A stretch of DNA of 64,000 nt. Origin: Desulfobulbaceae bacterium. Its GTDB lineage: Bacteria; Desulfobacterota; Desulfobulbia; Desulfobulbales; Desulfobulbaceae. The notes beneath the pieces were generated by a model. The model ran no database searches and was not told the DNA's origin. It saw only the letters and a list, made by a program, of their open reading frames with translations. Where the stretch lies: contig DNUE01000016.1 of the NCBI GenBank assembly GCA_003508005.1, positions 24,746-88,745 on the forward strand. The letters are read 5' to 3'. Numbering within the stretch: the first letter of the stretch is position 1; every line of letters begins with the position of its first letter. A program made the translations under genes and the position numbers. Below are positions 6,869 through 64,000 of this stretch, in pieces.

Positions 6869-8350
6869 TCAGCCAAGGAAGGGCATCAGGCCCTCTTTGC
6901 TCAGCTCGTTTGTGAACTTGACGTGCACCGAGTAGTCACTGAGGACAGGGTCATATATCTGCACCCCGGTAACCGTGCCCCGCAGGACCATATCTTTGCC
7001 GCCGCTGGTCGGGATGCACGCCTTGATGCTCCGGTTGAGAAGCAGGCGAATGTTTGCTTTCTTGGTGATCCTGATGAAGAAGGAAAGGCCGCCCTGGGAA
7101 ATATCGGTTAACTCGCCCTTGAAGCTGCTCAGGATGCGATCCTTGTCGTCTACGATCTGCAGCTGGATTTTCAATTCAACCTTGAATCGTTCATGGACCC
7201 TGCGGTCCAAGCCCTTTTTTTTCATCGCAGCATAGAAATCGCTGCAGCGGTTGTAATAGTCGATCAGCTTGGATTCAATTCCCGGAAACCGCTGCTCCAA
7301 CCGGGTCAGATATTCACGCTTGAGGACCGAAATGGAGGTCTGTTGCTGTGCGGTCAGGGACAGTGTCCATACCGATGCGTTGAAGAAATTCTCTCCGATA
7401 ATCTCACCGTTCCCCAAATCTTTCAGGAAAAGCTTCTTCTCTCCGTCCGTATAGGACGCCATGACGCTGCCGTGGTTGATGAAGAACAGCTCGTCATTTT
7501 GTGCTCCTTGGGTGACTATGGTTTCTTCAGGCCGGTAGCTGCGTATTTCCATCTCATGGTAGAGGGAATTGAATTCTTCGGTGGAAAGGACGGTGAGGAG
7601 CTTGGCCCAGACGGCAAGATGGTCCTTGGTGATGGACCCGGATTTTTCCTCCTCGATAATGTCGCCGGATTGAATGATCTCCATCAGCGCCAGGGGATCA
7701 ATCTCATAGATCCGTTCCCGCAGGCGTTCGGCATTGAAGAAATCTTTTTTTCTTGCGCAGGCGACCACCAGGTCAAAGAGCTGTTTCTTGGCCTCGTCCC
7801 TGTTGCCCTTGGCAGCAAGCTGGAATATCTGTTCCTCGCGCAGGGAAAGAAGGTCCTTGGGTTTCTGCGTCGGGTTCTCAGATTTTTCCAAGACGATTTG
7901 CCGGGTCTGTGCCATCTGCACTGCCTTGGCCGCCGAGGCGTGCAGCTGTTCCGGGTAAACCGGATTGCCGATTATGTTCTGCAGGGCGGGAACGGTCTTG
8001 CCCAGGATCTCCCATTGCTGAACCTGGGCCAATCTGGAAGCATTGGCGATGAGGCAGGCAGAGGCTGCCTCCCGGATCTCCTTGTCTTTGCTGCGCGAGC
8101 CGAGCTGGAGTTGGTCAAAAAGCTTCTCCACGACCGCCCTTTTCTGATTCGCGAAGAGGCGGACGATGGCTTCAGGCAAGGGTGCGGTGACCCTCTGATC
8201 GAGCAGGACCCTTTGTTCACCGCGCAAGAGACGGTTCAAGGCATCCTGGAGGCTGAAAACCTGTTGCTGGGTCAATGGAGCACCTTTGGCGAATATGTAT
8301 TTCAGGATAACTCTTTGTCGTGACGTAGCATTGAACGGGTGGCTTGTCAA
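6869..8350 (-). CDS. cyclic-nucleotide-binding domain plus C-terminal PilZ domain protein
   Basis: The cNMP-binding beta-barrel is suggested by ELFFINHGSVMASYTDGEKKLFLKDLGNGEIIGE. The PilZ signature is RRVHERF...DISQGGLSF. Confidence 0.75.
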   Translation of the reverse strand: MTSHPFNATSRQRVILKYIFAKGAPLTQQQVFSLQDALNRLLRGEQRVLLDQRVTAPLPEAIVRLFANQKRAVVEKLFDQLQLGSRSKDKEIREAASACLIANASRLAQVQQWEILGKTVPALQNIIGNPVYPEQLHASAAKAVQMAQTRQIVLEKSENPTQKPKDLLSLREEQIFQLAAKGNRDEAKKQLFDLVVACARKKDFFNAERLRERIYEIDPLALMEIIQSGDIIEEEKSGSITKDHLAVWAKLLTVLSTEEFNSLYHEMEIRSYRPEETIVTQGAQNDELFFINHGSVMASYTDGEKKLFLKDLGNGEIIGENFFNASVWTLSLTAQQQTSISVLKREYLTRLEQRFPGIESKLIDYYNRCSDFYAAMKKKGLDRRVHERFKVELKIQLQIVDDKDRILSSFKGELTDISQGGLSFFIRITKKANIRLLLNRSIKACIPTSGGKDMVLRGTVTGVQIYDPVLSDYSVHVKFTNELSKEGLMPFLG

Positions 8351-8371
8351 GTGTTCGCCGTGGCAGGATTC

Positions 8372-8980
8372 CTATCCTGGCGCAGCGATCACGCGGTACT
8401 GCAGAAGCAGGGAGATGACCCGGTCGATGGGGAGACCGACGACATTGGCGCAGGAACCTTCGATCCTGCGCACGAGAAAGGCCCCGGGCCCCTGGATGCC
8501 GTAGGCTCCAGCCTTGTCCAGAGGGTCGCCGGTGGCGATGTATGCCTTCAGTAGTTGGTCCGGGGCAGGGATGAAGGTTACCCCGGTTGTATCCACCTCG
8601 GTTTGCTCAATTCCCTGCGCCGGGGAGCACAGGCAGATGGCGGTCATCACCTGGTGGGTCCGTCCGGCCAGTTGGTGCAGGATGGCCAAGGCATCGGCCC
8701 GGTCTTTCGGTTTGCCGAGGATCATCCCGTCCAGGGTGACCACGGTGTCAGCGCCGAGCACCCAGGCCCCGGGGTGGGAGCCGGCAACGTCCCGGGCTTT
8801 GCTTCCGGCCATCCGGATGGCAAATTCCCCAGGCGATTCACCAGGCAGCGGGGTCTCATCGACCTCGGCCGGTGTGACCGTGAAATCGAGGCCCATGCTC
8901 CTGAGCATCTCCTGCCGGCGAGGGGAGGACGAGGCGAGGATCAGAGGGGCAAGGGTGGCGAACAGGGGGTGTCTCGGCAT
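8372..8980 (-). CDS. maf: Maf-like nucleoside triphosphate pyrophosphatase
   Basis: LILASSSPRRQEML...GADTVV...DKAGAYGIQG are canonical Maf motifs. Confidence 0.9.
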   Translation of the reverse strand: MPRHPLFATLAPLILASSSPRRQEMLRSMGLDFTVTPAEVDETPLPGESPGEFAIRMAGSKARDVAGSHPGAWVLGADTVVTLDGMILGKPKDRADALAILHQLAGRTHQVMTAICLCSPAQGIEQTEVDTTGVTFIPAPDQLLKAYIATGDPLDKAGAYGIQGPGAFLVRRIEGSCANVVGLPIDRVISLLLQYRVIAAPG

Positions 8981-10841: not shown

Positions 10842-10975
10842 GTGTTAAGCATCCCTGATCCGCCACCATAGGCGGTCTCATTTGAACTGCGGGCAACCGT
10901 ATTTCCCCTCGGCGTCGGGGGCGGAATTGCTATCGAGCGGTTTTGCGACCCCGATTCCGATACCGACGCCGACCC
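10842..10975 (-). repeat. long-arm member of the intergenic repeat family (hairpin 10909..10975 plus box 10842..10866)
   Basis: The minus strand reads CGGGGTCGGCGTCGGTATCGGAATCGGGGTCG-CAAAAC-CGCTCGATAGCAATTCCGCCCCCGACGCCGAGGGG, then GTGGCGGATCAGGGATGCTTAACAC. It shares GTCGGTATCGGAATCGG with 16866..16883 and 16960..16985. Confidence 0.6.
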
Positions 10976-11012
10976 CGATATCAACTCACGAAGGTCAAAG
11001 CTATCATCAGCC

Positions 11013-12000: not shown

Positions 12001-12075
<75 letters not shown>

Positions 12076-12079
12076 AGAT

Positions 12080-12119
12080 TAATTGTCAGATTCGCAAGAA
12101 GAACGTCGCTGACGCCGGC
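12080..12119 (+). repeat. hairpin-module copy of the intergenic repeat family
   Basis: TAATTGTCAGATTCGCAAGAAGAACGTCGCTGACGCCGGC. The TAATTGTCAG and CTGACGCCGGC ends match the copy at minus 32080..32041. Confidence 0.55.
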
Positions 12120-12385
12120 AGCGTCTGCACCATTTTCAGCGTCTTCGACAAATTGCGTAAACAGCTTCGAATAAAAACAGTTTGGAGGGAAAATGTCAAT
12201 AAAAAATTGTCTCTATTTTCCAGCGGTCCTTGATAAAATAACCAGAGGAACGGAGAAGGGTTGCGAATATCGCTGAAGAAGAATATGATTAGAGTAATAT
12301 TATTCGGAAAATTTTAGTCATGATCGCCGTTTCCCTTGCCAGGGAACGGGATGCCTTGCAGGAGGATGCAGTGGCGAGAAAAGCG

Positions 12386-16802: not shown

Positions 16803-16854
16803 AAGGCTCAAGGCAGGGAGGTAAGTCGATGGGGGGCAAAGGTCATCCTACTGT

Positions 16855-16989
16855 GTCGGGGTCGGGGTCGGTATCGGAATCGGTAGCGCAAATAGAGTTA
16901 TGTACTGTTGCCATCCATTTATTGATGCAATGATATTCGGTTAACGCCGGTTTACTTCTCGACCCCGATTCCGATACCGACTCCGACCC
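16855..16989. repeat. inverted-repeat member of the intergenic repeat family (arms of about 23-29 nt separated by about 76 nt)
   Basis: Left arm GTCGGGGTCGGGGTCGGTATCGGAATCGG (16855..16883). The reverse complement of the right arm (16960..16989) is GGGTCGGAGTCGGTATCGGAATCGGGGTCG, matching 22/23 in the core. The interior carries GCGCAAATAG and AACGCCGG, echoing the hairpin module. Confidence 0.65.
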
Positions 16990-17000
16990 TGATGGGATAA

Positions 17001-30841: not shown

Positions 30842-31936
30842 TTATTGGTTAAAAAATTTCTGGCGCAGGGACCTGGAGACATCGCGGGTGAGAACCAGCA
30901 CCCGGTGCGCCATTTCCTGGCTCAGGGAGCCAGTGCCGCAGCTTGGAGTAATCAGGGTCTGGCGAAGGAGCTCGGCCTTGCTCCGACCTGTGGCTGCCAG
31001 AATATCCATCTGAGCTTCCCAGCGGGCGCAGAGGGATTGCACGCTCTCCGCGGCAATATCCTCGGCCCGCCCCGTGGGCACACCGCCCCAGGCGAGGATC
31101 CCCCCCCGTGAAAGGAAGGCGTCAAGTTCAGCGGTCAGGGGGGCGAGCCGGTCAAAAAAATTGTAGGCGTCAAAGCTGAGGATATCGATATCTGATGCCA
31201 ACAGCATGCCCCAGTCGGTATTGGCGCAAACATGTATGCCCGCGAGCCCTTCTGCCCGGTGCACGGCCGTGGTTACCTCGTTGATCATTTCCTGGATTTC
31301 CTCGGCGGTAACGCTGATAAAGGCAGAGGAGCCGAGCCCCGCCAGGGCCGGTTCGTCGATGAACATCAATATCGGCTGCTTGCATTTCCTCAGAAATGCT
31401 GTCTGCCAGGCGGCTTTCATGGCGATGCCCTTGGTGACCATGTCCCGGATGGATTCGTCAAAATAGCCGGCCCGGCCCTCTTCGTCCTTGATGCCGGTCA
31501 GCATGGTGAAGGGGCCGGTGACCTGTCCCTTGCCGGCCAGGACCTTTGCGGTTTGGAGTCTCTCGGCGAGCAGGTAGAGCCCGGCCGCCCTCTCTCGGCT
31601 TGTGGCAAATATGGAGTCGGGAGGCAATTCGGGGCGTTCCGCTGCCTGGAGGTAGGCTTCGTAAAAGGTGAGCATGGCCTCCTCGTACCCCGGATAGCCG
31701 GTGTCGAAGAATATACTGCCCTGCGGAGCGCTAGTGTTTTTCTCGATGATGCAGGGGATCCCCTCGGCAAACTGGGGCAGCATCTGCTCCCGCGGGTCTG
31801 ATGGCAGCTGCGGCCAGAGCGGGATCTCTGGGGTGGCCTCGAATATCCAGTCCATGGCCTGTTCATGGCTGCGCAGGGGCAGGCTGCCGATGAGAACAGG
31901 TAGGCCGTCTGCGGCAAATCGACCAAGGGCGGTCAT
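30842..31936 (-). CDS. MetE C-terminal-domain-like (Meth_synt_2 / core-MetE-like) zinc methyltransferase family protein
   Basis: The 364-aa TIM-barrel-like sequence has candidate zinc ligands GIHVCAN (HxC) and ITPSCGTG (Cys), placed as in cobalamin-independent methionine synthase catalytic domains. The family assignment is by motif only. Confidence 0.55.
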   Translation of the reverse strand: MTALGRFAADGLPVLIGSLPLRSHEQAMDWIFEATPEIPLWPQLPSDPREQMLPQFAEGIPCIIEKNTSAPQGSIFFDTGYPGYEEAMLTFYEAYLQAAERPELPPDSIFATSRERAAGLYLLAERLQTAKVLAGKGQVTGPFTMLTGIKDEEGRAGYFDESIRDMVTKGIAMKAAWQTAFLRKCKQPILMFIDEPALAGLGSSAFISVTAEEIQEMINEVTTAVHRAEGLAGIHVCANTDWGMLLASDIDILSFDAYNFFDRLAPLTAELDAFLSRGGILAWGGVPTGRAEDIAAESVQSLCARWEAQMDILAATGRSKAELLRQTLITPSCGTGSLSQEMAHRVLVLTRDVSRSLRQKFFNQ

Positions 31937-31974
31937 GAATATTTCACCTCATCAGGTTAAAGGTACGAAATATT

Positions 31975-32095
31975 GATGTGTTCGCAAAAAGTAACAACAC
32001 TGAGCATCCGCCACTGAGATTTCAACAACTTACAAGGCTTGCCGGCGTCAGTTCCGCACTTTTTGCGGGACTGACAATTATCCGCACGTGACGAA
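31975..32095 (-). repeat. compact full-architecture copy of the intergenic repeat family (blocks B, C, D, E)
   Basis: The minus strand reads CGTCACGTGCGG, then TAATTGTCAG-TCCCGCAAAAAGTGCGGAA-CTGACGCCGGC, 24 nt, GTGGCGGATGCTCA (32014..32001), and TTTTTGCGAA (31990..31981). Confidence 0.65.
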
Positions 32096-33431: not shown

Positions 33432-33517
33432 TGCCTGACGCTTCGGGTGTTATTCGTGCCGGATACATTGAGTCAAGGCACCATCTGACCCTGAGCCGCT
33501 TTGAGTCATATGCTGCC

Positions 33518-33548
33518 GGAATCTTAATAACAGTAATGCAGACGCCGG
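33518..33548 (+). repeat. hairpin-module-derived copy (GGAATC-N12-ATGCAGACGCCGG)
   Basis: It shares the identical 13-mer ATGCAGACGCCGG and the identical GGAATC-N12 spacing with 60886..60916. Confidence 0.55.
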
Positions 33549-33620
33549 AAACTCTTTCCGCACGATGAGATACCGGGGCAGAGTGGTCATCACTGTTTTA
33601 TTATCAGCTGGCGTAGCATT

Positions 33621-33720
33621 TTTTGTCAGAATCGCAAAAAAAAAACGATTCTGATGCCGGTGCTCTGGAATTTATTGAAATTAACAGTGGAGGAAGCTCA
33701 GTTTTCATTTTTTGCGAGTT
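33621..33720 (+). repeat. copy of the intergenic repeat family (blocks C, D, E) upstream of the sigma-54 regulator gene
   Basis: GTCAGAATCG-A10-CGATTCTGAT hairpin followed by GCCGG, then 24 nt, CAGTGGAGGAAGCTCAG, and TTTTTGCGAG. Confidence 0.6.
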
Positions 33721-33770
33721 TGCCATATTTTGCTACAAAGAAGAAGGGGAATTGTGTACTTTCTCATTCT

Positions 33771-39849: not shown

Positions 39850-40081
39850 CGCGCTGATCCTTTCTAATCTCGGTGGCACGGCTGTACTGGATACAAGCCG
39901 CGGTTTACAGAGTTTCTGGTTGAGGGGCCCGCATACAAAAGTCGGTTGTCAGGAAAAAAAGTTGCGCAAATAGCCCCACGAGCAGGTCGCAAAAGTCCTG
40001 GACACCAGGGCGTCCACACGGTGCGCCGCAGTGACGAATAATGCTGAATAATGTCACGGTTGGGGAGTTTTGGCGACGCCA
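39850..40081 (-). repeat. repeat-family element filling the ilvB-ilvN spacer (blocks A, B plus divergent tail)
   Basis: The minus strand reads TGGCGTCGCCAAAACTCCCCAAC (40081..40059), 21/23 identical to 60762..60784. GTCACTGCGGCG (40035..40024) is identical to 60825..60836, and the following ~40 nt are also alignable. Confidence 0.6.
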
Positions 40082-40083
40082 TT

Positions 40084-41784
40084 TTAGACGAGCAACATTT
40101 CCGTTGTCGCTTTCCCGGCCGGGACCATCGGGAACACGCCTTCTTCCCGTTCAATGACAAAGTCCATGATCACGAGGTTGTCCGAGGCCAAGGCTTCCTT
40201 GATCACCGGCACAACCTCGGCCTTGGTCTTGGCTCGCAGGCCAACAGCGCCGTAGGCCCTGGCCAGTTCGACAAAGTCGGGGGTAACCTCCATGGGAGTG
40301 GCCGAGTAGCGGCGGTTGTAGAACAGCTCCTGCCACTGGCGGACCATGCCCAGGTAGCCGTTGTTGAGAATGGCCACCTTCACCGGCGCACCCCACTGCT
40401 TGGCCGTGGCCAGTTCCTGGATGTTCATCTGGATGGAGCCGTCGCCGGCGATGTCGATGACCGTGGCGTCCGGAAATGCCAGCTTGGCGCCGATGGCCGC
40501 CGGCAGCCCGTAGCCCATGGTGCCGAGCCCGCCGGAGGTCAACAGGTGTCGCGGTTTATTGAATTTGTAGAATTGGGCCGCCCACATCTGGTTCTGGCCG
40601 ACCTCGGTGGTGATGATTGCATCGCCGCCGGTCAGTTCGTGGAGTTGCTGGACAACGTACTGCGGTTTGATCACATCGCCTTTTTCAAGGTAGGTCAGCG
40701 GGTGTTTTTTCTGCCAGTCTGCGATTTCGGCAAGCCAGGGCTGCAGTTTCTCTGCGCTCGTCTTGGGATCGAATTCAGAGGACTTGTCGAACCAGGTGTT
40801 CATCGCCTGCAACGCAGCCCTGCAGTCCGCGACTATGGGGATATCCACCTTGACGTTCTTGCTGATGGAGGTGGGATCGATATCGATATGAATGACTTTG
40901 GCGTGCGGGGCAAAAGCGTCCAGCCGGCCAGTCACCCGGTCATCGAAACGGGCGCCGACCGCAATGAGCAGATCGCTCTTGGCTACGGACATGTTGGCCG
41001 CATAACTGCCGTGCATGCCGAGCATGCCGAGCGACTGTTTGTCGGTGCCAGGAAAGCCGCCCAGGCCCATGAGGGTCATGGTCACCGGTGCGCTAATTTT
41101 ATGCGCCAGTTCGGTAAGTTCCTTGCTGGCGTTAGACAGGATGACCCCCCCGCCCACATAGACGACCGGCCGTTTCGCTGCGAGTATCCCCTTGCAGGCC
41201 TTCTCGATTTGCCCCGGATGGGGTTCGTAGTTCGGCTGGTAGGTCTGCATCTTGATTTTTTTCTTTTCCGGATAGGTGATCATCGAGGCAACCACGTCCT
41301 TGGGCAGATCAACGAGCACCGGGCCGGGCCGGCCGGTGGCGGCGAGATAAAATGCCTCACGGATGGTCTGCACCAGATCATCAGGGTTGCTGACCAGGTA
41401 GTTATGCTTGGTACACGGCCGGGTAATGCCGACGATATCCACTTCCTGAAAGGCATCGTTGCCGATGAGGGCGGTGGGAACCTGACCGGTGAGCACGACT
41501 ATCGGAATGGAATCCGCATAGGCGGTAGCGATGGCGGTAACTCCGTTGGTGGCGCCTGGACCTGAAGTGAGCAGCGCAACCCCGACATCGCCGGTGGCCC
41601 TGGCGTAACCGTCTGCCGCGTGCACAGCTCCTTGCTCGTGGCGAACCAGGATGTGTTTGATATCTGTGTTGAGCAGTTCATCGTACAGGTCAATGACCGC
41701 ACCACCCGGAAAGCCGAAAATGATGCGGACTCCTTCTTCTTTCAGACACTTGATAATGGCCTGTGCACCTGTCATTTTTGCCAT
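40084..41784 (-). CDS. ilvB: acetolactate synthase large subunit (biosynthetic, ThDP-dependent)
   Basis: MAKMTGAQAIIKCLKEEGV...GGLGTMGYGLPAAIGAK...GDGSIQMNIQEL is the ThDP motif. Confidence 0.95.
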   Translation of the reverse strand: MAKMTGAQAIIKCLKEEGVRIIFGFPGGAVIDLYDELLNTDIKHILVRHEQGAVHAADGYARATGDVGVALLTSGPGATNGVTAIATAYADSIPIVVLTGQVPTALIGNDAFQEVDIVGITRPCTKHNYLVSNPDDLVQTIREAFYLAATGRPGPVLVDLPKDVVASMITYPEKKKIKMQTYQPNYEPHPGQIEKACKGILAAKRPVVYVGGGVILSNASKELTELAHKISAPVTMTLMGLGGFPGTDKQSLGMLGMHGSYAANMSVAKSDLLIAVGARFDDRVTGRLDAFAPHAKVIHIDIDPTSISKNVKVDIPIVADCRAALQAMNTWFDKSSEFDPKTSAEKLQPWLAEIADWQKKHPLTYLEKGDVIKPQYVVQQLHELTGGDAIITTEVGQNQMWAAQFYKFNKPRHLLTSGGLGTMGYGLPAAIGAKLAFPDATVIDIAGDGSIQMNIQELATAKQWGAPVKVAILNNGYLGMVRQWQELFYNRRYSATPMEVTPDFVELARAYGAVGLRAKTKAEVVPVIKEALASDNLVIMDFVIEREEGVFPMVPAGKATTEMLLV

Positions 41785-41980
41785 TGAATTTTTCCTCTTC
41801 TGCTTGAATCCATAATGCCCTTGCTAATATTGAGAATACTGATCATCCGCCATGGCGGTTACAATATTTGCATGGTTTGCCCGCAACAGAATCGCTTTGT
41901 AAGCAATTTTGACAACCCAGGAAATTGCCGCCGCCGTCGACCTGACTGGATTGTAAGTAACCGTACAGGATGAATCTAAA

Positions 41981-43249: not shown

Positions 43250-43324
43250 TGGTGGGCGATACTGGGTTTGAACCAGTGACCCCTGCCGTGTGAAGGCAGT
43301 GCTCTCCCGCTGAGCTAATCGCCC
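43250..43324 (-). tRNA. tRNA-Val (anticodon CAC)
   Basis: Hand-folded: acceptor GGGCGAT/ATCGCCC, anticodon stem CTGCC/GGCAG with loop TTCACAC, T-loop TTCAAAC, and an encoded CCA. Confidence 0.95.
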
Positions 43325-43439
43325 TTAACTGTTTTGAAATAATAGTTCATTCGCCGGAGCGAGTCAACGTTCCTGCAGGTTCTTATTGTAAAAAAAAGGA
43401 AGGAGGGAGCATGAAGTATAGATAACTATTTTCTAAAAC

Positions 43440-43516
43440 TGGTGGGCGAAGCGGGATTCGAACCCGCGACCTTTGGCTTCGGAGGCCAACACTCTATCCA
43501 GCTGAGCTATCCGCCC
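43440..43516 (-). tRNA. tRNA-Arg (anticodon CCG)
   Basis: Hand-folded: acceptor GGGCGGA/TTCGCCC, anticodon stem TTGGC/GCCAA with loop CTCCGAA, T-arm GCGGG-TTCGAAT-CCCGC, and an encoded CCA. Confidence 0.95.
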
Positions 43517-43737
43517 ACTCGTTGTGATTTACGTGTAAATTTGTCTAATTAGCTGTTTGTATCCGGTTCCCGCAAGTCGAGTTGACCTGCCAGGAGTATA
43601 CCCTGAAAACAACATTTTGTTTCCACATAGTTTCCACCTGGGAGACCACATAATCTCCAATGGAATCCGGAAAACAGCTGTTTATTAGGAGTCTAAGACA
43701 CATTACACTTCATTGCATCTCCTCCCAATCAAAAGCC

Positions 43738-43767
43738 GCGGGTTCAAATCCCGCCATATTTCCTCCA
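43738..43767 (+). other. isolated tRNA/tmRNA-like T-arm fragment (no complete cloverleaf)
   Basis: GCGGGTTCAAATCCCGC followed by CATATTTCCTCCA. I could not fold a D-arm or anticodon arm upstream of it. Confidence 0.3.
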
Positions 43768-44052
43768 ACCCTGGAGAAATTCCCGATGGTAATCTCTCGA
43801 AGGTGTCAGAAATGTCGGCACGATAATACGCGCAAGCACCATAAATGTCAATGTTGTTCCTTCCCGCTGTCTCAGGTGTAATTTCAGGAAAATAATTCCT
43901 TCCTTACGGTATTTCAAGTTCGCAGTATCCCGCCAGCTCGTGGAATGCTTCGCCGGGTGACAGATACACGGTGGAATTGACTTGAAAAGCATCGTGAATT
44001 CATATAGTCTGCTTATTATTTCGATTACTATGGATAGAAACGTGAAGAATCT

Positions 44053-45000
44053 ATGAAGCCGCCACCAGACGCTATTGACCCACGCTGTCTTGATTCCATT
44101 GTATTCTCTCAAGTTCTTGACATGGTGGATATCGGACTGGTGATTCTGGATCGCGGATTGCGTGTGCGGTATTGGAACCGTTGGATGCAACAGCACAGCG
44201 GAATCGGGCCTGATCGAATTCTTGGGTCTTCTCTTTGCGATATTTTCCCTAACTTAAATCGTCCCCGCTTTTTGAGTAATTGTCAGACGGTTTTCACGTT
44301 TGGTAATTTCTGTTTCTTTTCCCAAAAGTTGCACAACTATTTGTTTCCTTTTAAGCCGATCAGTTCTTTTGATTCCGATTTTAAGCATATGCAGCAGAGC
44401 TGCACGATGGGACCGTTGCGTAATGAAAAAGGTGAAATTACCGATCTGTTCATCTCCGTGCATGATATGACCGAATCGGTCAGTTTCGAACAGAAGTTGA
44501 TAGCCCTCAATATGATTGATTCGCTTACCGGTGTGCATAACCGGAGATGTTTTGAAGCGCATCTCAAGGAAGAGGTGGAGCGTCATAAACGGTATGGTCA
44601 TCCCTTGAGTTTGATCATGTTTGACATCGATTACTTCAAGCAGGTCAACGACACTTATGGCCACCAATGCGGTGATTATATTTTGCGGGAGATTGCCGAA
44701 TTAATCAACAATTCAATTCGCAGCGAAGACAGGCTGGCTCGATACGGCGGCGAAGAATTCTGTTGCATATTGCCGGAAACTACGTTGGAAGCCGCTGCAA
44801 TTCTTGCCGAACGGTTAAGGAAAAAAATCGCCGATCATGTTTTCGAGTACGAGCAAGACCGTGTCCGACTCACCATCAGCCTGGGCGTTTCTGCTATGAA
44901 TTTGAACACAACGACGGCCGATGCCCTCCTGAAAAACGCCGATGATGGCCTGTATTCGGCTAAAAACAGAGGCCGCAACCAAATTGAAGTCACGCCCTGA
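44053..45000 (+). CDS. PAS-like sensor diguanylate cyclase (GGDEF domain)
   Basis: DSLTGVHNRR...MFDIDYFKQVND..GH..GD...RYGGEEFCCIL has an intact GGEEF active site. The N-terminal ~130 aa are PAS-like. Confidence 0.85.
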   Translation: MKPPPDAIDPRCLDSIVFSQVLDMVDIGLVILDRGLRVRYWNRWMQQHSGIGPDRILGSSLCDIFPNLNRPRFLSNCQTVFTFGNFCFFSQKLHNYLFPFKPISSFDSDFKHMQQSCTMGPLRNEKGEITDLFISVHDMTESVSFEQKLIALNMIDSLTGVHNRRCFEAHLKEEVERHKRYGHPLSLIMFDIDYFKQVNDTYGHQCGDYILREIAELINNSIRSEDRLARYGGEEFCCILPETTLEAAAILAERLRKKIADHVFEYEQDRVRLTISLGVSAMNLNTTTADALLKNADDGLYSAKNRGRNQIEVTP

Positions 45001-45083
45001 TTGAAAGTTTATTGGAGAAGTGGATGTTGATGAAGAAGCTGAGCATTCAGGACAGGAAGGTATAGTTCCCTTTGAGGCAGATC

Positions 45084-45464
45084 ATGATAAAAAAGATACT
45101 GATTGTTGATGATTCGCCTATTTCCATTAGAATTATCAAGTGCTGCATCCCCAAGGATCGCGACTTTGAATTTTTTGATGCCGCAGATGGCCGGATCGGC
45201 GTGGAAATGTTCAAGCAAATCAAGCCGGATCTGACCTTTATGGATTTGACCATGCCGGTGATGAACGGTTTTGAAGCCCTGCAGGAAATTATTCAATTCG
45301 ATTCCCGGGCAATGGTGGTAATTGCCACCGCTGATGTTCAGAGTAAGGCCATCGAGCGTGCCCATGAGCTTGGCGCTTTTTCCGTTGTCAAAAAACCGCC
45401 GACCAGGGAAAATATCGCCGCTGCGATTTCCGGCGTTGAATCAGCGCTCGCGAAACGGAGATAA
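45084..45464 (+). CDS. CheY-like single-domain response regulator
   Basis: ILIVDDSP...LTFMDLTMPVMNG...ATADV...VVKKP has the REC-domain acidic pocket, phospho-Asp and conserved Lys. ATG 45084 was chosen (the track start at 45072 is TTG). Confidence 0.85.
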   Translation: MIKKILIVDDSPISIRIIKCCIPKDRDFEFFDAADGRIGVEMFKQIKPDLTFMDLTMPVMNGFEALQEIIQFDSRAMVVIATADVQSKAIERAHELGAFSVVKKPPTRENIAAAISGVESALAKRR

Positions 45465-45467
45465 ATA

Positions 45468-46112
45468 ATGAGTTCGGCCAATCAAGAATTAATGATCACT
45501 GCGGAAGAAACCGATATTCTCCAGGAAATCATGAACATTGCCTTTGGCCGCGCGGCGTCTGATCTTGCCGAGCATATCGACATATTTGTTATTCTCAGCG
45601 TTCCGTATATCAAGCTGCTCCGTCTCTCTGACCTTCCGCCCTATATCAACTCAGAGATTAAGGAGTATAAAAAGGTAACTTTGGTTGAACAGAACTTCTG
45701 GGGAAAATTCAAAGGCAGCGCCTTTCTGGTTTTTCCGGCGGATAGCGGTAAAAACATCCTGTCCCTGCTCGACGGCTCCGATGAATACTTTGAATCTGAC
45801 CGGATCAATGAGCTGGAAAAAGAGGCGGTTCGCGAAGTCGGCAACATTCTAATCGGAGCCTGCATCGGTAAGATCGCCGAACTCCTGGGGGATTTCATCA
45901 CCTATTCGCCGCCCCGCGTGGCGGTGGAGAGAAGTCAGTGCGGCATTATATCTGACAGCCTTGTTGCAGATGACAACCTGGCGATTGTCTTAAGGACTGT
46001 TTTTGAATTTAATGATAAAAACATTTGTGGCTATCTTTTCATCGTCACGAGCGAAGAATCCTTTGCCTGGTTAAAAACGGCTCTGCATAATTTTCTGGAT
46101 CAGTACGAGTAA
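45468..46112 (+). CDS. CheC/CheX-like (CheY-P phosphatase family) protein
   Basis: Two CheC-type segments: DILQEIMNIAFGRAASDL and EAVREVGNILIGACIGKIAELLG. The gene starts 3 nt after the CheY-like gene. Confidence 0.65.
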   Translation: MSSANQELMITAEETDILQEIMNIAFGRAASDLAEHIDIFVILSVPYIKLLRLSDLPPYINSEIKEYKKVTLVEQNFWGKFKGSAFLVFPADSGKNILSLLDGSDEYFESDRINELEKEAVREVGNILIGACIGKIAELLGDFITYSPPRVAVERSQCGIISDSLVADDNLAIVLRTVFEFNDKNICGYLFIVTSEESFAWLKTALHNFLDQYE

Positions 46113-46116
46113 TCCT

Positions 46117-46344
46117 TTATTTCATGCGGACACAGGGAAGGCTGGAAGCTTGTTCCCGTCCATCGTATTCTTCGCCGATTCCCTTGTCCGTTTGCCCTGT
46201 TTTCGGATTGTAGCAGGCATATGCAAATTCTCTATCCCCGTTGAACGATACATTTCTGCGCAGGAAGATGGAGCATTGCGGAAGAGTATCCAGGCAGGCG
46301 CTTGTTGCGGTGACGGGCAAGAGGAATTGGAGAACTTTGCTCAT
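46117..46344 (-). CDS. hypothetical small protein (75 aa), weak support
   Basis: Supported by the ORF only; no recognisable motif. Convergent with the CheC-like gene. Confidence 0.25.
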   Translation of the reverse strand: MSKVLQFLLPVTATSACLDTLPQCSIFLRRNVSFNGDREFAYACYNPKTGQTDKGIGEEYDGREQASSLPCVRMK

Positions 46345-46365
46345 ATGGGACTGAAATCCTGAAGA

Positions 46366-46803
46366 ATGACAATGACATTAAGGGAAGAAATACAGGCAAT
46401 CGTCAAGGCGGTGCCGGCGGCATTGACTGAGCGCAAAGACCTGTTCAGCTTTTCATATGTTGTGGCCGAACGGAAGGCATTTCTGTGCAAGCAGAAGCTG
46501 GTCTACTCCGCGAAAATCCGTATCGATGACCTCAACAAAGAGCTTCATTTTTCCGAAATGCTCAAGGAAACGGGTTTTGGCCTGGGCGGCGGTAATGACG
46601 GCGATACTATGAGCCCCGGGCTTGGCTTCAGGAAATCCGTTTACAAGACCGGTTTGGGGCCGAGGCTGGAAACAATTGAGGAGCTTTCCTCCTTTTTCGG
46701 CAAAAAATACAGCTACACCTTTGCTTTCGCCTTGATCAGGGAACGCATCAAGGCCGCGGCAACGAATGCTCGATATCGTTTCGTTTACAAGCTCATCCAG
46801 TAG
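46366..46803 (+). CDS. hypothetical protein (145 aa)
   Basis: An ORF with plausible composition, but I recognise no domain. Confidence 0.45.
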   Translation: MTMTLREEIQAIVKAVPAALTERKDLFSFSYVVAERKAFLCKQKLVYSAKIRIDDLNKELHFSEMLKETGFGLGGGNDGDTMSPGLGFRKSVYKTGLGPRLETIEELSSFFGKKYSYTFAFALIRERIKAAATNARYRFVYKLIQ

Positions 46804-46866
46804 CAAAGGGATGCATACGATGACAAGGAACCTTGGCGGATCAACAGCTCTTCAGCACCTTGAATG

Positions 46867-46913
46867 AAAAAAACAGGAGGGGAAATTTTCTTGTACAAAT
46901 TCCGCCCCCCTGT
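46867..46913 (-). terminator. rho-independent terminator downstream of the ferredoxin gene
   Basis: On the minus strand, an ACAGGGGGGCGG...CCCCTCCTGT hairpin is followed by a T7 run. Confidence 0.6.
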
Positions 46914-46954
46914 TGACTTGCGTAAATCGATCCCGGTTTCCGCCGGGAAGAGAA

Positions 46955-47140
46955 TTACACTTCGGTAACCGTGATCGCCCCTGTCGGGCAGACCTCGACG
47001 CAGGTCTCGCAGCCCAGGCACTCATCCATGTTCACCGGCTCGGCCTTGCCGTCAACCAGTTCTAAGACCTGGGCAGGGCAGGCGTTTACACATTCAGAGT
47101 CACCGTTGCATTTATCTTTGTCCACCACTACATCAAACAT
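46955..47140 (-). CDS. small [4Fe-4S]-type ferredoxin (61 aa)
   Basis: CNGDSECVNACP and CLGCETCVEVCP cluster motifs, with a strong RBS (GAGGGAGG). Confidence 0.85.
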   Translation of the reverse strand: MFDVVVDKDKCNGDSECVNACPAQVLELVDGKAEPVNMDECLGCETCVEVCPTGAITVTEV

Positions 47141-47767
47141 GACATACCTCCCTCGTTCTGTTTTGCTTTAAAGCCTTGGTAACAAACTCCTTGTGGAGTA
47201 TTTTTTAACATGGGGCGACGTTATCGCGTCTCCCCAAGATGTTCATCCCTTCTATTTGGCGCCGCTTAGCCATGCTTACGGCTATTTTCATTTTCCTGGC
47301 CCAGGTATTTTTTATTAGGGGCCGCTCCCGCAGGAATTGATCAACTGCCCTGGCATCCGATGGGTTCGCGCCGGACGATTGAGATGACGCTCACTTTCCC
47401 AACCTGTCCATTTTCCTGTTCGACCAGTGAATACAAGCAGCAGTGGCTGAAACGATCTTGTCTCTATCGCTTCAGCTTTTCTGAGTTCTCTGGTCAGGAT
47501 GGAATAGTACCCAAAAAAAATATAACACCTCTTCTAACATATTGAAATTTTTTCTGCCACGTTTTGCTGATAAAGTCATCAAAGAACATATGCACAAAAT
47601 AAATAACAAGGATGCCGTTGTCAGAAGGATTTTTTGACATTCCCCTTCCGTTTGTTCATGGTGGAATCTCCTGTCAGGGTGAAGAGCTCATTTTCAGACT
47701 ATGTGGCTAATCTCTCTGGATAAGTGCGACACGAACAGTCAGGAATGAGATCGCCCTCCACGGCAGG

Positions 47768-48781
47768 TCAGCGGTAACCGTCTGGATTGTTCGACTGCCA
47801 GCGCCAGGTGTCCGTGCACATGGCGTCGAGGCCGCGTCTCGCCCGCCAGCCGAGCTCTTTTTCAGCAAGGCCGGGATCAGCGTAGCAGCAGGCGATGTCT
47901 CCCGGTCGGCGGGAGGTGATGCGGTAGGGTATTTTCTTGCCGCTGGCCCGGGCAAAAGCGGCGATCATCTCCAGCACGCTGCAACCGCGTCCGGTGCCCA
48001 GGTTGAAGGTCGCCACCCCTGGGTTTTGCGTCAGTTTTTCCAGGGCCTTGAGATGACCCAGGGCCAGGTCGACCACATGGATATAGTCGCGGACCCCGGT
48101 GCCGTCGGGCGTATCGTAATCATTGCCGAATACCGACAGGGTCTGCAGTTTGCCCACCGCCACCTGGGAGATAAAGGGCATGAGGTTATTGGGGATGCCG
48201 TTCGGGTCCTCGCCGATCTCTCCGCTTTCGTGCGCGCCCACCGGGTTGAAGTACCGAAGCAGGGCCACGTTCCAGGACGGGTCCGCTGTGTGCAGATCGC
48301 GCAGAATCTCCTCGATGAACAACTTGGTCCGGCCATAGGGATTGGTGCAGGCGAGCGGAAAATCCTCGCGGATGGGAACGCTCTTCGGATGGCCATAGAC
48401 CGTGGCCGAGGAACTGAAGACCATATTTTTGACATTGCATTCCTGCATCACCTGGCAGAGGTTAAGGGTGCCGGTGATGTTGTTCCGGTAGTAGAGAAGG
48501 GGCTTGGCCACAGACTCGCCAACCGCCTTCAGCCCGGCAAAATGAATGACCGCCGTTGCATCGTCGCAGACCGCGAAGATACGCTCCAACTCATCCCGGT
48601 CCAGCAGGTCGGTCTCGAACAGGGCGATGGGTCTTCCGGTCAGCTTTTCCACCCGCTGGAGGGACTCTTCGCATGAATTGCTCAGGTTGTCGATTACTGT
48701 GACCTGGTGCCCGGCGTTGAGCAACTCCAGGCAGGTGTGGCTGCCAATATACCCGGCCCCGCCGGTGACGATGATATGCAT
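47768..48781 (-). CDS. galE: UDP-glucose 4-epimerase
   Basis: [15 protein letters not shown] Rossmann motif, with YGRTK providing the catalytic YxxxK. The internal ATG at 48781 was chosen. Confidence 0.9.
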
Positions 48782-59500: not shown

Positions 59501-60761
59501 CCTGGCAGTGATCCTGTACCTGGCCAAGCAGGGGCCGACGCTGGTGGTCGCGCCGACCTCGGTGTGCATGAACTGGGAGCAGGAGATCATCCGTTTCGCA
59601 CCTACCCTCAACATCCAACTTCTCAGCGGGACCGGAAGAAAGGACCTGGTCGCCTCACTGAACAAGTTTGATATCCTGATCACCAGCTACACCTTGCTGC
59701 AGCAGGAAATCAAGCTGCTGGAGTCGGTCGAGTGGCAGTGCATTGTCCTGGACGAGGCACAGGCCATCAAAAATGCCGGCACCAAGCGCTCCCGGGCGGC
59801 TATGCGGCTCAAAGGCAGGTTTCGCCTGCTGACCACCGGAACGCCCATCGAGAACCATCTGGGTGAGCTGTGGAACCTGTTCCGCTTTATCAACCCAGGT
59901 CTGCTCGGCTCCTTCAAGCAGTTCAACGCCCGTTTCGGCATTCCCATTGAAAAGCATCAGGACCGGGATGCTCGTCGCAAACTGAAAAAGATCATCCGCC
60001 CCTTTATGCTGCGCCGGATCAAGGCCCAGGTTCTGGACGAGCTGCCGCCCCGCACCGAGGTATCCCTGCGGGTGGAGATGAAGCCCGAGGAAATGCATTT
60101 TTACGAGGCCCTGCGCCAGCAGGCCCTGGAAAACATCGAAGGAAGCATGGAAAAAACCGGCCGCCATCTGCAGATCCTGGCGGAGATCATGAAACTGCGC
60201 CGGGCCTGCTGCCACCCCAGGCTGATCGTGCCGGACATCGACATTTCCGCGGCCAAGATGGAGGTTTTTGCCGCGCTGGTGGATGAACTGCTGGCAAGCA
60301 GGCACAAGGCCCTGGTTTTCAGCCAGTTCACCGGCCACCTTTCCTTGATCAGGAAATATCTCGACGAAAAAGGGATCGTCTATAAATACCTGGACGGCAC
60401 CACGCCGACCAGGGAGCGGCAGCGCCAGGTGGAAACCTTCCAGGAAGGTGAAGGCGATCTGTTCCTGATCAGCCTGAAAGCAGGTGGGCTCGGACTCAAC
60501 CTGACCGCTGCCGATTATGTCATCCACATGGACCCCTGGTGGAATCCTGCGGTCGAGGACCAGGCAGCGGACCGGGCGCACCGGATTGGCCAGAAACGGC
60601 CTGTTACGGTCTACCGGCTGGTGACTGCCAATACCATCGAAGAAAAAATAGTCAAGCTGCACCAGGAGAAACGGGATCTGGCCAATTCGCTGCTCGAGGG
60701 CACCGATGTCAGCGCTCGGATCAGTGCCGACGAGCTGCTGGAACTGATCCGGGAAAAATGA
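56595..60761 (+). CDS. SNF2-family helicase/ATPase with an N-terminal region of about 900 aa and unknown function
   Basis: C-terminal SNF2_N plus helicase_C: LADDMGLGKT (motif I), VLDEAQAIKN (DEAQ box), TGTPIEN, and WWNPAVEDQAADRAHRIGQ (motif VI). Confidence 0.85.
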   Translation: MTDEHERNIPAGYLSFSPLEQALLLLVSVIYEPVATPFLFSCMAKADFGTLGTFRPTREELASALYRLREKHFLNENNRIPQPLVEYITRQAVRSGIFCQLSALVEKMAPVSYQDGKWSTRCRRAMRQFRIGIYNGDFEKIDEANAFLDEHCRSRLAGKAPAVLVAAESFDPQWFGALAGSLQFYLLEQVIRYSMNQLQHYPPVLSYLADESALTIGPDEQVPFHRLLAGYYLLEGRFTDLEALHARHPDSFHASGFSGTLAFLRGDTEQAHFLFREDLRQLHAYFGDRPAFFFGLPGLFCVFALLDRNRIEDRLLIKQDIAIALARYQGCPEEVPYLFIDALVSSLDSSLPDMKTLSERLQEDEAGLTRLIAVLCLCWMGVEIPDEFRKSLASVYERAAANGFAWLAMEAAILLGELEYEGQGAEYGRLGEEYRSRLGCRSIVSIIATERSWKHSLQELITLTSAVRSQKQTTRLVWLVQYAKGRLYFQPREQKRKADGTWSKGRSMALSRLIEQRDLDFLTTQDRRICAALHSLAEPPSKGSGYGFDPEIALPALIGHPLVFLEKSPQTPVEIIAGEPELLVEQQGDYLFIHFTQDIGEGKVIVWQETLTRFKVIRIDDNHRRIAGITGRKGLRVPISASSQVLDAIGRIGSFMTVHSSVGVDIGSQSVDSVEADSTIHLHFIPYGSGFRLEMFVKPFVDGGPYLKPGVGVANLLADVNGRRLQTRRNLRLEEEKAREIEESCPILDLAIDLEEGNVREWHLLDPEECLQALLELEEIRDKVVLEWPEGGRLSVRRQAGVNQLNLNIRTSQQDWFGISGRLAIDQDEVIELKTLLDSVKYSRSRFIPIGDSQFLALTQEFRKRLDELVLLAESREDGEGDEVFIHPLAALALDGLTREANTKADEGWKRRLRLVQESQALAPEVPSTLQAELRDYQYEGFVWMARLAHLGVGACLADDMGLGKTLQSLAVILYLAKQGPTLVVAPTSVCMNWEQEIIRFAPTLNIQLLSGTGRKDLVASLNKFDILITSYTLLQQEIKLLESVEWQCIVLDEAQAIKNAGTKRSRAAMRLKGRFRLLTTGTPIENHLGELWNLFRFINPGLLGSFKQFNARFGIPIEKHQDRDARRKLKKIIRPFMLRRIKAQVLDELPPRTEVSLRVEMKPEEMHFYEALRQQALENIEGSMEKTGRHLQILAEIMKLRRACCHPRLIVPDIDISAAKMEVFAALVDELLASRHKALVFSQFTGHLSLIRKYLDEKGIVYKYLDGTTPTRERQRQVETFQEGEGDLFLISLKAGGLGLNLTAADYVIHMDPWWNPAVEDQAADRAHRIGQKRPVTVYRLVTANTIEEKIVKLHQEKRDLANSLLEGTDVSARISADELLELIREK

Positions 60762-61010
60762 TGGTGTCGCAAAAACTCCCCAACTGAGGTGTCGGAGTCT
60801 ACGCTTACCTGTGCTTCTTCCTTTGTCACTGCGGCGTACAGGGTGTACGCTTCATTCCTCAGGATTTGCGCGCCTTGCATTTGACGGAATCGCAAAAAGG
60901 GCGATGCAGACGCCGGCAATCTAGGTAACTTATTGTATCCATTGTGGCGGATGCTCAATGTATTTATTCTATTACACTTTTATTTCATTGGGGTTTTTTG
61001 CATAGCCATC
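60762..61010 (+). repeat. most complete copy of the modular intergenic repeat family (blocks A-E)
   Basis: Block A is 60762..60784 and block B is 60825..60836. Block C is GGAATCGCAAAAAGGGCGATGCAGACGCCGGC (60886..60917). Block D is GTGGCGGATGCTCA (60944..60957). Block E, TTTTTGCA, lies near 60994..61001. Confidence 0.65.
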
Positions 61011-61074
61011 CCTTTTGTCTTTTAAAGAGGACATAAGAAATATGAGACACCACGGTATTAATTGAGGACGCGAG

Positions 61075-62394
61075 ATGAACATTCGAACGCTGAGTGTGGA
61101 AACAGAGCAGGGGCGAAATTTTCTGCGGGTCCTGCGGGAAAGGTTCAGCTTCGGGGACGGCGGCTGCCGCGAGAGGGTGGCGAATATCCTCGAGGAGGTT
61201 CGTCTCCGGGGCGACGAGGCGGTGGTGGAATACACCCGGAAGTTTGATGCCCCGGCTATGACTGTCGCCGGTATGCGGGTGCTTGATGCGGAAATCGAGG
61301 CGGCGGCAAAGGGAGTGTCTACGGAGCTTTTGGCAACCCTCCGCCTGGCCGTGGAGAGGATCCGGGCCTTTCATGAACGGGAGATGGAGGACTCCTGGTT
61401 CCTGACAAGGGACGACGGCACGGTGACCGGCCGGCTGGTGCGGCCGGTGGACAGCGCCGGCCTTTATGTGCCGGGCGGGCAGAGCGGCTCCACCCCCCTA
61501 GTCTCCTCGGTTTTAATGAACGGCATCCCCGCCCTCATCGCCGGGGTCAAGAGGCGGGTGATGGTCACCCCGCCCGACGACCAGGGAGGGGTCAGCCCGG
61601 CGCTGCTGGTGGCGGCCCGCGAAGTCGGGATAGATGAGATTTATAAAATCGGTTCCGCCTGGGCCATTGCCGCCTTGGCTTACGGCACCGCGACCATCCC
61701 GGCGGTGGACGTGATCGTCGGCCCCGGCAACCAGTACGTGGCCGAGGCCAAGCGCCAGGTCATGGGTCGTGTGCGCATCGATATGATCGCCGGCCCCAGC
61801 GAAGTGCTGATCGTGGCCGACGCACAGGCCAACCCATCATTCATCGCCGCTGACCTGCTGGCCCAGGCCGAGCATGATCCTCAGGCCCTGGCCATCCTCC
61901 TCACCACCAGCGAGGAGATTGCCGCCAGGACCGAGGCGGAACTGGAGTATCAGTTACCGCAGCTGAGCCGCCAGGAGGTGGCCAGCCGGTCGCTTTCCGA
62001 GCGGGGCGCAATCCTGCTGGTCGATTCTTTGGAGCAGGCCATGGAATTGGCGAACGAGATCGCCATCGAGCATCTGGAGCTGCAGGTGCAGGACCCCTGG
62101 CAGTGGCTGCCCAGGGTGCGGCACGCCGGGGCTGTGTTCCTGGGCGGCTTTACCCCGGAGGCGGCCGGCGATTATGTGGCCGGGCCCAATCATGTCCTGC
62201 CCACCATGGGTACGGCCCGCATCGCTTCTGCCCTGGGGGTGGAGACCTTTCTCAAAAAAAGTTCCATCATCTCCTATTCGCGCCAGGCCCTGCTCAGCGA
62301 TGCCGACCATATCCGCCTGCTGGCCAGACTCGAGGGGCTGACCGCCCACGAACGCTCCGTGGCGGTGCGGGTGGAACACGCGGCCAGGTCCTGA
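61075..62394 (+). CDS. hisD: histidinol dehydrogenase
   Basis: [15 protein letters not shown]...AQAEHD...AIEHLEL are HisD motifs. Confidence 0.95.
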
Positions 62395-63219: not shown

Positions 63220-64000
63220 GTTCCGGGTAAAGGCGCCGGTTACCCGGTGCCCTCCCCACAGACCCGGACGTGATGATTTCCCTCACCCGGTTCCTCGAAA
63301 GACACAGGTTCTACGCCCGTGAATTACCAAACGGGTTGTTCCCCGTTTGGCGCATAACTTTGCTACCCAGTGCATTCTATGGACTTTGCGTTGACATAGT
63401 TTGTGGGCACAGAGTCCCTCCTATCTTTCCTGTCCACAGAGCGTTATGCCCGGCTTCACCTTTCCTGCAGCGGGTCCCTTGAGCCTCGGTTCCCCGCCTT
63501 CCCGGACATCTTTTCCTGTCCACCGGTACTATGATCAGCTAAGACTGCCAAAAGCCCGTCTCAGGTCCGTTCACTCTTCGCTGTCCGTACCTGATACCTT
63601 GCCTGCCCTTCTGCTTTTGTGTTCTTCTGCAAGCTCGCATGAGGGGCGGGGCGCTCTCACCTCATACGCCGGGAATGTATATACGGCATTCCTGACCGTT
63701 ACCTGTGCAAGGAGACAAGTGGCTCTCCCGAGTTCCCACGCTACCCCTGTGAATACATGCCCTGGTCTCAGACCCCGGTGGTGACCGGAACACTTGCCAT
63801 AGCGCATTCCGGCCTGCTGCCTTCCGGCATCGTAAAGCCGTCGGCTTTCACTCCCGGTTGCCCGGAAGCTATCATAAAGACCACGAAGAAAGATTTTTCG
63901 GAGCTCAATACAGAGCCTGCATTCTTGATCCGTCCGGCTCAGGACTCCCGTTACTGGGTTGGCCCTCGGACTTCTCTACTGACCTGTCGGCTTGACTTTG
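63220..64000 (-). ncRNA. candidate large structured RNA; group II intron-like 3' portion (domain III-, V- and VI-like elements), 5' end beyond the window
   Basis: No credible ORF on either strand over about 800 nt, and the minus strand is purine-rich. The domain V-like element at minus 63293..63261 is GAACCGGGU-GAGG-GAAA(U)-CAUC-AC-GUCCGGGUC. The domain VI-like element is GGCACCGG-GUAA-CCGGCGCC with a bulged A 8 nt before ...GGAAC (63220). The canonical AGC triad reads AAC, so the call is tentative. Confidence 0.35.

Follow-up and report, generated by a model that had tools for sequence, protein, structure and literature searches.

Introduction

Correia elements of Neisseria (CREE or NEMIS) are non-coding sequences of about 100-150 bp that are present in many copies, mostly intergenic and often co-transcribed in 5' UTRs, and that contain an IHF-like site. 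The ERIC or IRU sequences of enterobacteria are imperfect palindromes of about 127 bp located in transcribed intergenic regions, and larger variants of them are formed by internal insertions. To our knowledge, neither mobility nor target duplications have been established for ERIC. In the BOX repeats of Streptococcus pneumoniae boxA, boxB and boxC are parts of one element, and the number of boxB units is variable.

Another class is formed by RUP, Nezha and other IS-derived MITEs: these are about 100 bp long and are thought to be moved in trans by the transposase of an IS, via shared ends. The cognate IS of RUP is IS630-Spn1. When MITE families derive from one IS, it is typical to find the same ends around two different internal sequences. 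Further, REP/BIME sequences with RAYT are short, intergenic, palindromic and of high copy number; single REPs are 20-40 nt long, have a conserved GTAG head and are not known to have a target duplication.

Here we describe two families of repeats, CDE and AB, that meet in the spacer between an SNF2 gene and hisD in a 64-kb stretch of Desulfobulbaceae DNA; this whole stretch is called the window below. A preliminary description had seen one modular, unnamed family of interspersed repeats at gene junctions, similar to BOX or ERIC. The recurring blocks, their location and the general likeness to ERIC, BOX and Correia all stand, but what we find are two independent elements with shared ends and not a single family.

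In behaviour, Correia elements are the closest to CDE: both are small and do not code for protein, occur in many copies that lie mostly between genes and often in transcribed 5' UTRs, are bounded by inverted repeats and short target duplications, and contain an IHF-like site. The likeness is one of description. In Correia elements the terminal repeats are 26 bp long and the duplication is TA, while CDE has subterminal repeats, a hairpin at one side only and an AT-rich duplication of about 5 bp; also, the hosts are unrelated. AB resembles ERIC, again by description, in being an imperfect palindrome and in having an internal insertion at hisD. However, unlike in ERIC, what is inserted here is itself a distinct repeat, flanked by a target duplication, and we know of no sequence relationship between ERIC and AB. 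With BOX the hisD spacer has its intergenic location and modular look in common, but the analogy fails because CDE and AB are independent, occurring alone and nesting in either order. It should be kept in mind that BOX and ERIC are compared by description only and that their hosts (Streptococcus, Enterobacteriaceae) are remote from Desulfobulbaceae.

For RUP, Nezha and similar MITEs, movement in trans via shared ends is what we propose here as well. RUP has a cognate IS, whereas none was found for CDE or AB in the window or the fetched loci. Finally, the elements are short, intergenic, palindromic and numerous as REP/BIME are, but CDE is unlike a REP in being 103 nt long, mostly non-palindromic and flanked by duplications.

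MITEs as such are a known kind of element; CDE and AB are two families for which no description was found. A literature search on MITEs in Desulfobulbaceae or Desulfobulbus, and on the motif strings, returned nothing relevant. Likewise Rfam, suggested earlier as a check, gives no match at the gathering threshold, and for two copies searched at E up to 10 only noise (sR47 at 11 bits, pemK at 13.7 bits).

Results

Organisation of the SNF2-hisD spacer

The spacer, read directly from the window, is 313 nt long, from the SNF2 stop codon at 60759-60761 to the hisD start at 61075. It consists almost wholly of two small non-coding mobile elements: a CDE copy that is nested in an AB copy (Table 1). In intact AB copies the point of insertion reads CTTGCATTCGGGG or CTTGCACCCGGG, and in the window it reads GCATT[CDE]TCATT GGGG. 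The nested CDE, 73% identical to the family consensus, shows its 5' hairpin, GACGCCGG and the GTGGCGGATGCTCA core, and its 3' end is decayed.

In one relative (L049) the site is empty and reads AAAAATGATGAC, so the native sequence resembled an AB end before insertion. About 45 nt at 61037-61074 are found in the window and in a second relative (L048) and are missing in L049; this stretch may be native spacer that was lost in L049.

The AB terminus (TGATGG) includes the SNF2 stop codon, TGA, as its opening triplet.

Copies within the window

A CDE profile was built from nine copies, and AB was searched with a separate second profile (nhmmer). Full-length matches to the CDE profile are located at minus 32081-31967, plus 60877-61004, minus 41919-41799 and plus 33620-33739, and their E-values of 1e-23 to 1e-34 place the recurrence well beyond chance. 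The same profile also matches a 5' fragment at 12079-12136. The AB profile matches both the ilvB-ilvN and the SNF2-hisD spacer (E 1e-25 to 1e-38). The boundaries of all copies are listed in Table 1.

Table 1. Coordinates of CDE and AB copies and their flanks in the window
Feature	Position	Strand	Evidence and remarks
AB at hisD, 5' part	60759..60881	+	starts TGATGGTGTCGCAAAAACTCC; nhmmer E 8.7e-25; aligned to the uninterrupted orthologous AB of L048
Left target-site duplication of nested CDE	60877..60881	+	GCATT
CDE at hisD, 103 nt, within AB	60882..60984	+	nhmmer E 1.3e-26; boundaries from comparison with L048
Right target-site duplication of nested CDE	60985..60989	+	TCATT
AB at hisD, 3' part	60990..61036	+	GGGGTTTTTTGCATAGCCATCC...GAGGACATAA; collinear with AB of L048, L043 and L047; 3' end +/- a few bases
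AB filling the ilvB-ilvN spacer	39920..40084	-	nhmmer E 4.9e-38; begins at the final base of the ilvB stop
Young CDE, 5' UTR of 364-aa ORF	31974..32076	-	nhmmer E 2.7e-34; flanks ATAAT / ATATT; 88% to consensus
Old CDE, ilvB 5' UTR, between conserved promoter and ribosome-binding site	41813..41914	-	nhmmer E 2.2e-24; flanks TGGGT / TGGAT
CDE upstream of sigma-54 response regulator	33624..33725	+	nhmmer E 6.1e-23; flanks TTTTT / TATTT; ortholog at L043 minus 15557-15440
Decayed full-length CDE, in tandem with 33624..33725	33514..33618	+	62% to consensus vs 49 +/- 2.3% for shuffles; tandem pair also in L043
CDE 5' fragment (hairpin + GACGCCGGCA), between tRNA gene (minus) and hisB	12084..12136	+	nhmmer E 1.2e-07, profile positions 6-63 only
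End-motif pair, written out			TGATGGCGTCGCAAAAA ... TTTTTGCGRGKTCATCA

Most of the block matches proposed in the preliminary description are recovered. Block A, at the SNF2 stop, recurs after the ilvB stop (60761-60784 vs minus 40082-40059, 22/24 or 92%), and block B is part of a 57-nt match of 60822-60878 to minus 40038-39982 (68%). The stretch from block C to block D aligns over 76 ungapped nt with the copy upstream of the 364-aa ORF (60891-60966 vs minus 32067-31992, 74%, blastn E 5e-11), and block D is identical at both sites. The hairpin copies at 33514-51, 33621-60, 12080-12120 and minus 32080-32040 are likewise genuine. The 5' fragment near hisB matches the copy upstream of the 364-aa ORF at 78% over 41 nt.

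Some assignments have to be changed. The look-alike of block B at minus 32093-32082 is native 5' UTR; the empty site in L043 has it too. What had been taken for long-arm forms of block C (10909-75 and 16855-16989) belongs to another repeat, which neither profile matches. Block E (60995-61002) is a real part of an element, but of AB and not of CDE. Further, a complete CDE copy upstream of ilvB (minus 41914-41813; blastn match minus 41915-41840) had been missed, as had the fact that 33514-33618 is a whole copy and that AB extends to 61036 and to 39920.

Two families with shared ends

The length of CDE is nearly fixed, 100-103 nt, and it spans from TGTCAG... to ...CATCA. It starts with an 11-bp hairpin with an A-rich loop, followed by GCCGGCAA, a well-conserved core, GTAACNTGTTGAAATCACAGTGGCGGATGCTCAGTG, and the 3' end, TTTTTACTTTTTGCGAGGTCATCA, with the end motif TTTTTGCGAGGTCATCA. 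The core is nearly invariant among young copies. AB is an imperfect palindrome of 165-200 nt with a predicted fold of -40 to -81 kcal/mol.

The termini TG...TCGCAAAAA and TTTTTGCG...CATCA are common to both families. At the 5' end CDE has TGTCAGAATCGCAAAAAG and AB has TGATGGCGTCGCAAAAAC, while the shared 3' end is TTTTTGCG(A/G)G(G/T)TCATCA. When the CDE 3' end is reverse-complemented (TTGATGACCTCGCAAAAAG) it resembles the CDE 5' end (TTGTCAGAATCGCAAAAAG), and both are like the AB ends, TGATGGCGTCGCAAAAAC and GTTTTTGCGGGTTCATCA. The TG-N6-TCGCAAAAA motif forms inverted pairs at both bounds of each copy. These inverted repeats are subterminal and imperfect (13/19 matches in CDE and 15/20 in AB, by hand alignment), and the extreme tips match poorly. 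Because the ends of CDE and AB are alike, blocks A and E as well as the hairpin loop all contain TCGCAAAAA.

Neither family has coding capacity: the sole recurrent ATG, in GGCGGATGCTC, opens frames that differ in length and sequence, and the copy at the response regulator has AAG where others have this ATG. A leader peptide or type I toxin starting there was rejected on the same grounds.

The hairpin is maintained. Across 17 CDE copies 80.6% of the cells are paired, and sliding the partner lowers this to 20-39%. Changes on both sides are seen in 20 cells, a number that is reached by 0/500 shuffles. RNAalifold finds no second supported helix; the other helix that it predicts is invariant or broken. 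The CDE palindrome is maintained, which does not in itself show a function as RNA: transposase recognition in master copies, or template-switch correction of quasi-palindromes, would preserve the pairing equally well. We also considered, and discarded, that the hairpin loop, CGCAAAAA, pairs at long range with TTTTTGCG, as the inverted terminal repeats explain this complementarity better and RNAalifold gives no second helix.

Filled and empty sites among relatives

Orthologous ilvB and hisD loci of relatives were fetched. The identity of their IlvB to that of the window is 96% (L043), 94% (L044), 90% (L045) and 89% (L046). Four sites show insertion polymorphism, with both filled and empty states among the relatives.

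The ilvB leader contains CDE in the window and in L043, a degenerate copy in L044, and is cleanly empty in L045 and L046; the promoter TTGACA-N17-TATAYT is kept in 5/5 genomes, whether filled or empty. Upstream of the 364-aa ORF the site is empty in L043, ...GCAAATAATT|CGCACC, where the window reads ...GGATAAT[103 nt]ATATT TCGTACC; the empty site reads ATAATT|CG. The promoter of this ORF, TTGACA-N18-AATGAT, is located directly upstream of the young CDE and is conserved in L043 too. Between ilvB and ilvN, both the window and L043 contain AB, while L044-L046 have no AB and a spacer of 68-73 nt. The SNF2-hisD spacer is 24 nt long in L049; L048 has an uninterrupted AB there, the window has AB with a CDE nested in it, and L047 has a CDE in antisense.

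The reverse nesting is observed in the metagenome-assembled genome (MAG) of Desulfobulbus sp. SURF_48, where an AB insertion splits a CDE copy. Since CDE and AB are each found alone and nested both ways, they insert independently, and either is able to land in the other. The filled and empty orthologous sites, together with the target-site duplications described below, show mobile DNA and not a fixed structural or regulatory feature.

The ilvB promoter of the window (minus 42009-41981, TTGACA-N17-TATTAT) is conserved, with about 60 nt of leader, in five Desulfobulbaceae relatives. This conserved leader may be the carrier of native ilvBN regulation.

Target-site duplications and decay

To assess the duplications we took the element boundaries from the profile, allowed no shifts, and compared the 5 nt to the left and right of each of 13 independent CDE insertions. 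The flanks agree at 36/65 positions, against 26.3 +/- 2.9 in permuted left-right pairings (P = 0.0012), and at least 4/5 bases match in five of the events (P = 0.003). The targets are AT-rich and end in T; the duplications are about 5 bp long and mostly imperfect, at 4/5. AB shows a convincing duplication once, at L049 (AAAAA / AAAAT), and none is visible elsewhere.

The decay of older copies that are shared between genomes proceeds at the neutral rate. One insertion gave rise to the ilvB copies of the window and of L043, but their mutual identity is only 64%, lower than their identity to the consensus, about 70%; the damage differs between the two and includes the core. At the other extreme, the CDE upstream of the 364-aa ORF is as similar to a copy on an unrelated wetland contig as it is to the consensus (88%), and it is recent, because it is missing in L043. 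The pattern is that of a mobile element that spread from conserved sources and then drifted, rather than of selection in place.

Head-to-tail tandems of CDE with only a 4-5-nt duplication between them are frequent: L035 1943-1826 and 2022-1940, L043 15664-15440 and window 33514-33725. This suggests that new copies favour insertion at the edge of an existing one.

Distribution outside the window

In a collection of species-representative genomes the C-D pattern has 27 matches. The clear members are confined to two loci, both from SURF_48: L005, with two copies, and L018. L014 scores weakly (E about 1e-3). A scan of metagenomes gave 11 matches, of which four are real (L034, L035, L036 and L042), wetland contigs among them. 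The families therefore occur in several organisms, yet in a narrow clade. No plasmid match was found in PLSDB.

One AB-like copy was seen in an IMG/VR contig that is classed as viral (L052 272-396, nhmmer E 2.3e-08). The remaining matches in viral contigs are coincidental and lie inside coding sequence.

Discussion

Two probably non-autonomous elements and their likely mobilisation

The hisD spacer is probably made of two non-autonomous, MITE-like mobile elements, one nested in the other. A single transposase would bind the shared ends containing TCGCAAAAA and move both families in trans, making staggered cuts about 5 bp apart at AT-rich targets. The TG...CA tips and the duplication of about 5 bp suggest an enzyme of the IS3 / IS481 / IS21 / Mu-Tn7-type (integrase-like) DDE group. 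When long-range pairs of the end motif were sought in about 330 kb (the window and the fetched loci), no transposase or full-length IS with these ends was found. Pfam searches of the ORFs in the low-GC region (43.7-47.8 kb), at the window end and in the ilvB neighbourhood gave no parent IS either.

The sample of insertion sites is small, about 16. That copies survive only between genes could be explained if insertions within genes were purged by selection, and in this GC-rich genome AT-rich targets would be concentrated in leaders and spacers. Effects on neighbours, such as the longer 5' UTRs of ilvB and the 364-aa ORF, would then be by-products and not the reason for the elements.

Other readings of the elements

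The elements might instead be a cis-regulatory leader RNA (riboswitch-like, an attenuator or a protein-binding 5' UTR module) that amino-acid and translation genes have in common. The copies at ilvB and at the 364-aa ORF are indeed transcribed in 5' UTRs, because good native promoters lie just upstream; the hairpin is kept via compensatory changes; and the neighbours include ilvB, hisD, hisB, leuB, serS and tRNA-Ser. This list of genes is however biased, because the ilvB and hisD loci were chosen deliberately, and functionally unrelated neighbours occur too: mlaE, a response regulator, an MBOAT gene and the SNF2 gene. Orientation was part of the preliminary description, which held that every copy is oriented with its downstream gene. 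This is true within the window, which would agree with a leader, but fails outside it, where the copies in L018 and L047 are antisense. The copy in L035 is located upstream of the tRNA-Ser promoter, outside the transcript. In close relatives the same leaders (ilvB, hisD and the 364-aa ORF) do without the element, and orthologous copies decay to 64% identity with the core included. Further, only one helix is supported, and Rfam has nothing comparable even at E up to 10. With all this a shared leader RNA is very unlikely.

Slightly less likely again is a portable promoter, or a site for a nucleoid protein, that is retained for its effect in driving or tuning the gene that follows. A -35-like TTGCGA is placed 7 nt from the 3' end, so that it could pair with a -10 hexamer in the flank, the element contains an IHF-like site, YAA-N4-TTGAAAT, YAANNNNTTGAAAT is conserved, and there is a trend to sense orientation. 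But this trend, 7 sense vs 2 antisense between co-directional genes, is not significant (two-sided binomial about 0.18), the candidate -10 hexamers are poor and not conserved when read by eye, and a sigma-70 scan shows no promoter inside or across the hisD element. Moreover, ilvB and the 364-aa ORF have native upstream promoters that are conserved at the empty sites. Least probable of all is single-strand, hairpin-recognising transposition, as of REP/RAYT or IS200/IS605-derived palindromes, in place of DDE-type insertion. The structurally conserved hairpin at one end of CDE and the long palindrome into which AB folds would agree with it. IS200/IS605 and REP systems are not known to make target duplications, while flank duplications are present here; apart from T-rich sequence, no fixed tetranucleotide precedes the copies on their 5' side, the CDE hairpin is at one end only, and both orientations occur in one replichore (the skew is monotonic across the window).

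A sigma-54, RpoH or RpoE promoter, a CsrA site and a T-box or ppGpp-type leader were also compared with their consensus by eye, and their spacing or conserved bases do not fit.

Several observations count against the MITE-like reading: no transposase or full-length IS was found in about 330 kb, the inverted repeats are subterminal with poorly matching tips, the duplications are mostly 4/5, every window copy is in sense orientation, and the sample is small. The compensated hairpin and the nearly invariant core of young copies count against it too and could reflect a function beyond transposition. The core, YAA-N4-TTGAAAT-N4-GTGGCGGATGCTCAGTG, and the hairpin would then form a portable module, either a leader that binds a protein or an sRNA or else a small RNA itself, that wires amino-acid and translation genes into a common control circuit. 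We consider this very improbable. If true, insertion into 5' UTRs would have connected, in this Desulfobulbaceae lineage, ilvB, hisD, hisB, leuB, serS and tRNA-Ser, and also the operon that contains the 364-aa ORF and a tRNA synthetase gene.

Consequences of the MITE-like reading

As MITE-like insertions, the elements explain why some spacers are much longer than in relatives: 313 nt vs 24 nt between SNF2 and hisD, and about 235 nt vs about 70 nt between ilvB and ilvN. For this reason, conserved blocks that recur in front of his and ilv genes should not be taken for regulatory RNAs. Further, the two families are markers of recent genome change in uncultured Desulfobulbaceae that can be searched with profiles, and their insertion polymorphisms distinguish strains at 96% IlvB identity. 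Two elements with one set of ends that nest in each other also point to a transposase that is active, or was recently active, in the lineage. Apart from annotation, markers and this lead to a transposase, they are ordinary selfish DNA.

Other features near the elements

A third intergenic repeat, with GC-rich arms and a six-base period, (CGAYNC)n, is found in the window at 10905-10980 and 16852-16992, in L047 at 1279-1316 and in L048 at 12056-12083. Its copy at 16852-16992 is a 141-nt foldback with 28-nt arms that are 93% complementary (-73.7 kcal/mol). The hisD spacer of L047 contains yet another small repeat type, a GC-rich hairpin (CTCCCTCGCCCCCGTTCCGGGGGAGAGGGTGGGGGTGAGGGGG) at 8330-8400. 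Domains D1-D4 of a group II intron (Rfam, 75.7 bits) are located at 63763-64000 on the minus strand, cut by the window end.

The 364-aa ORF (30842-31936, minus) is conserved, and neither Pfam nor NCBIfam gives a match for it; the gene that comes after it in L043 encodes a class II aminoacyl-tRNA synthetase. Finally, the region 43253-47800 is low in GC (48%), adjoins two tRNA genes and a YqeY-like gene, and carries GGDEF and CheC/CheX genes. At this site L043 and L044 have different integrase-bearing islands, which suggests that it is a hot spot for integration.
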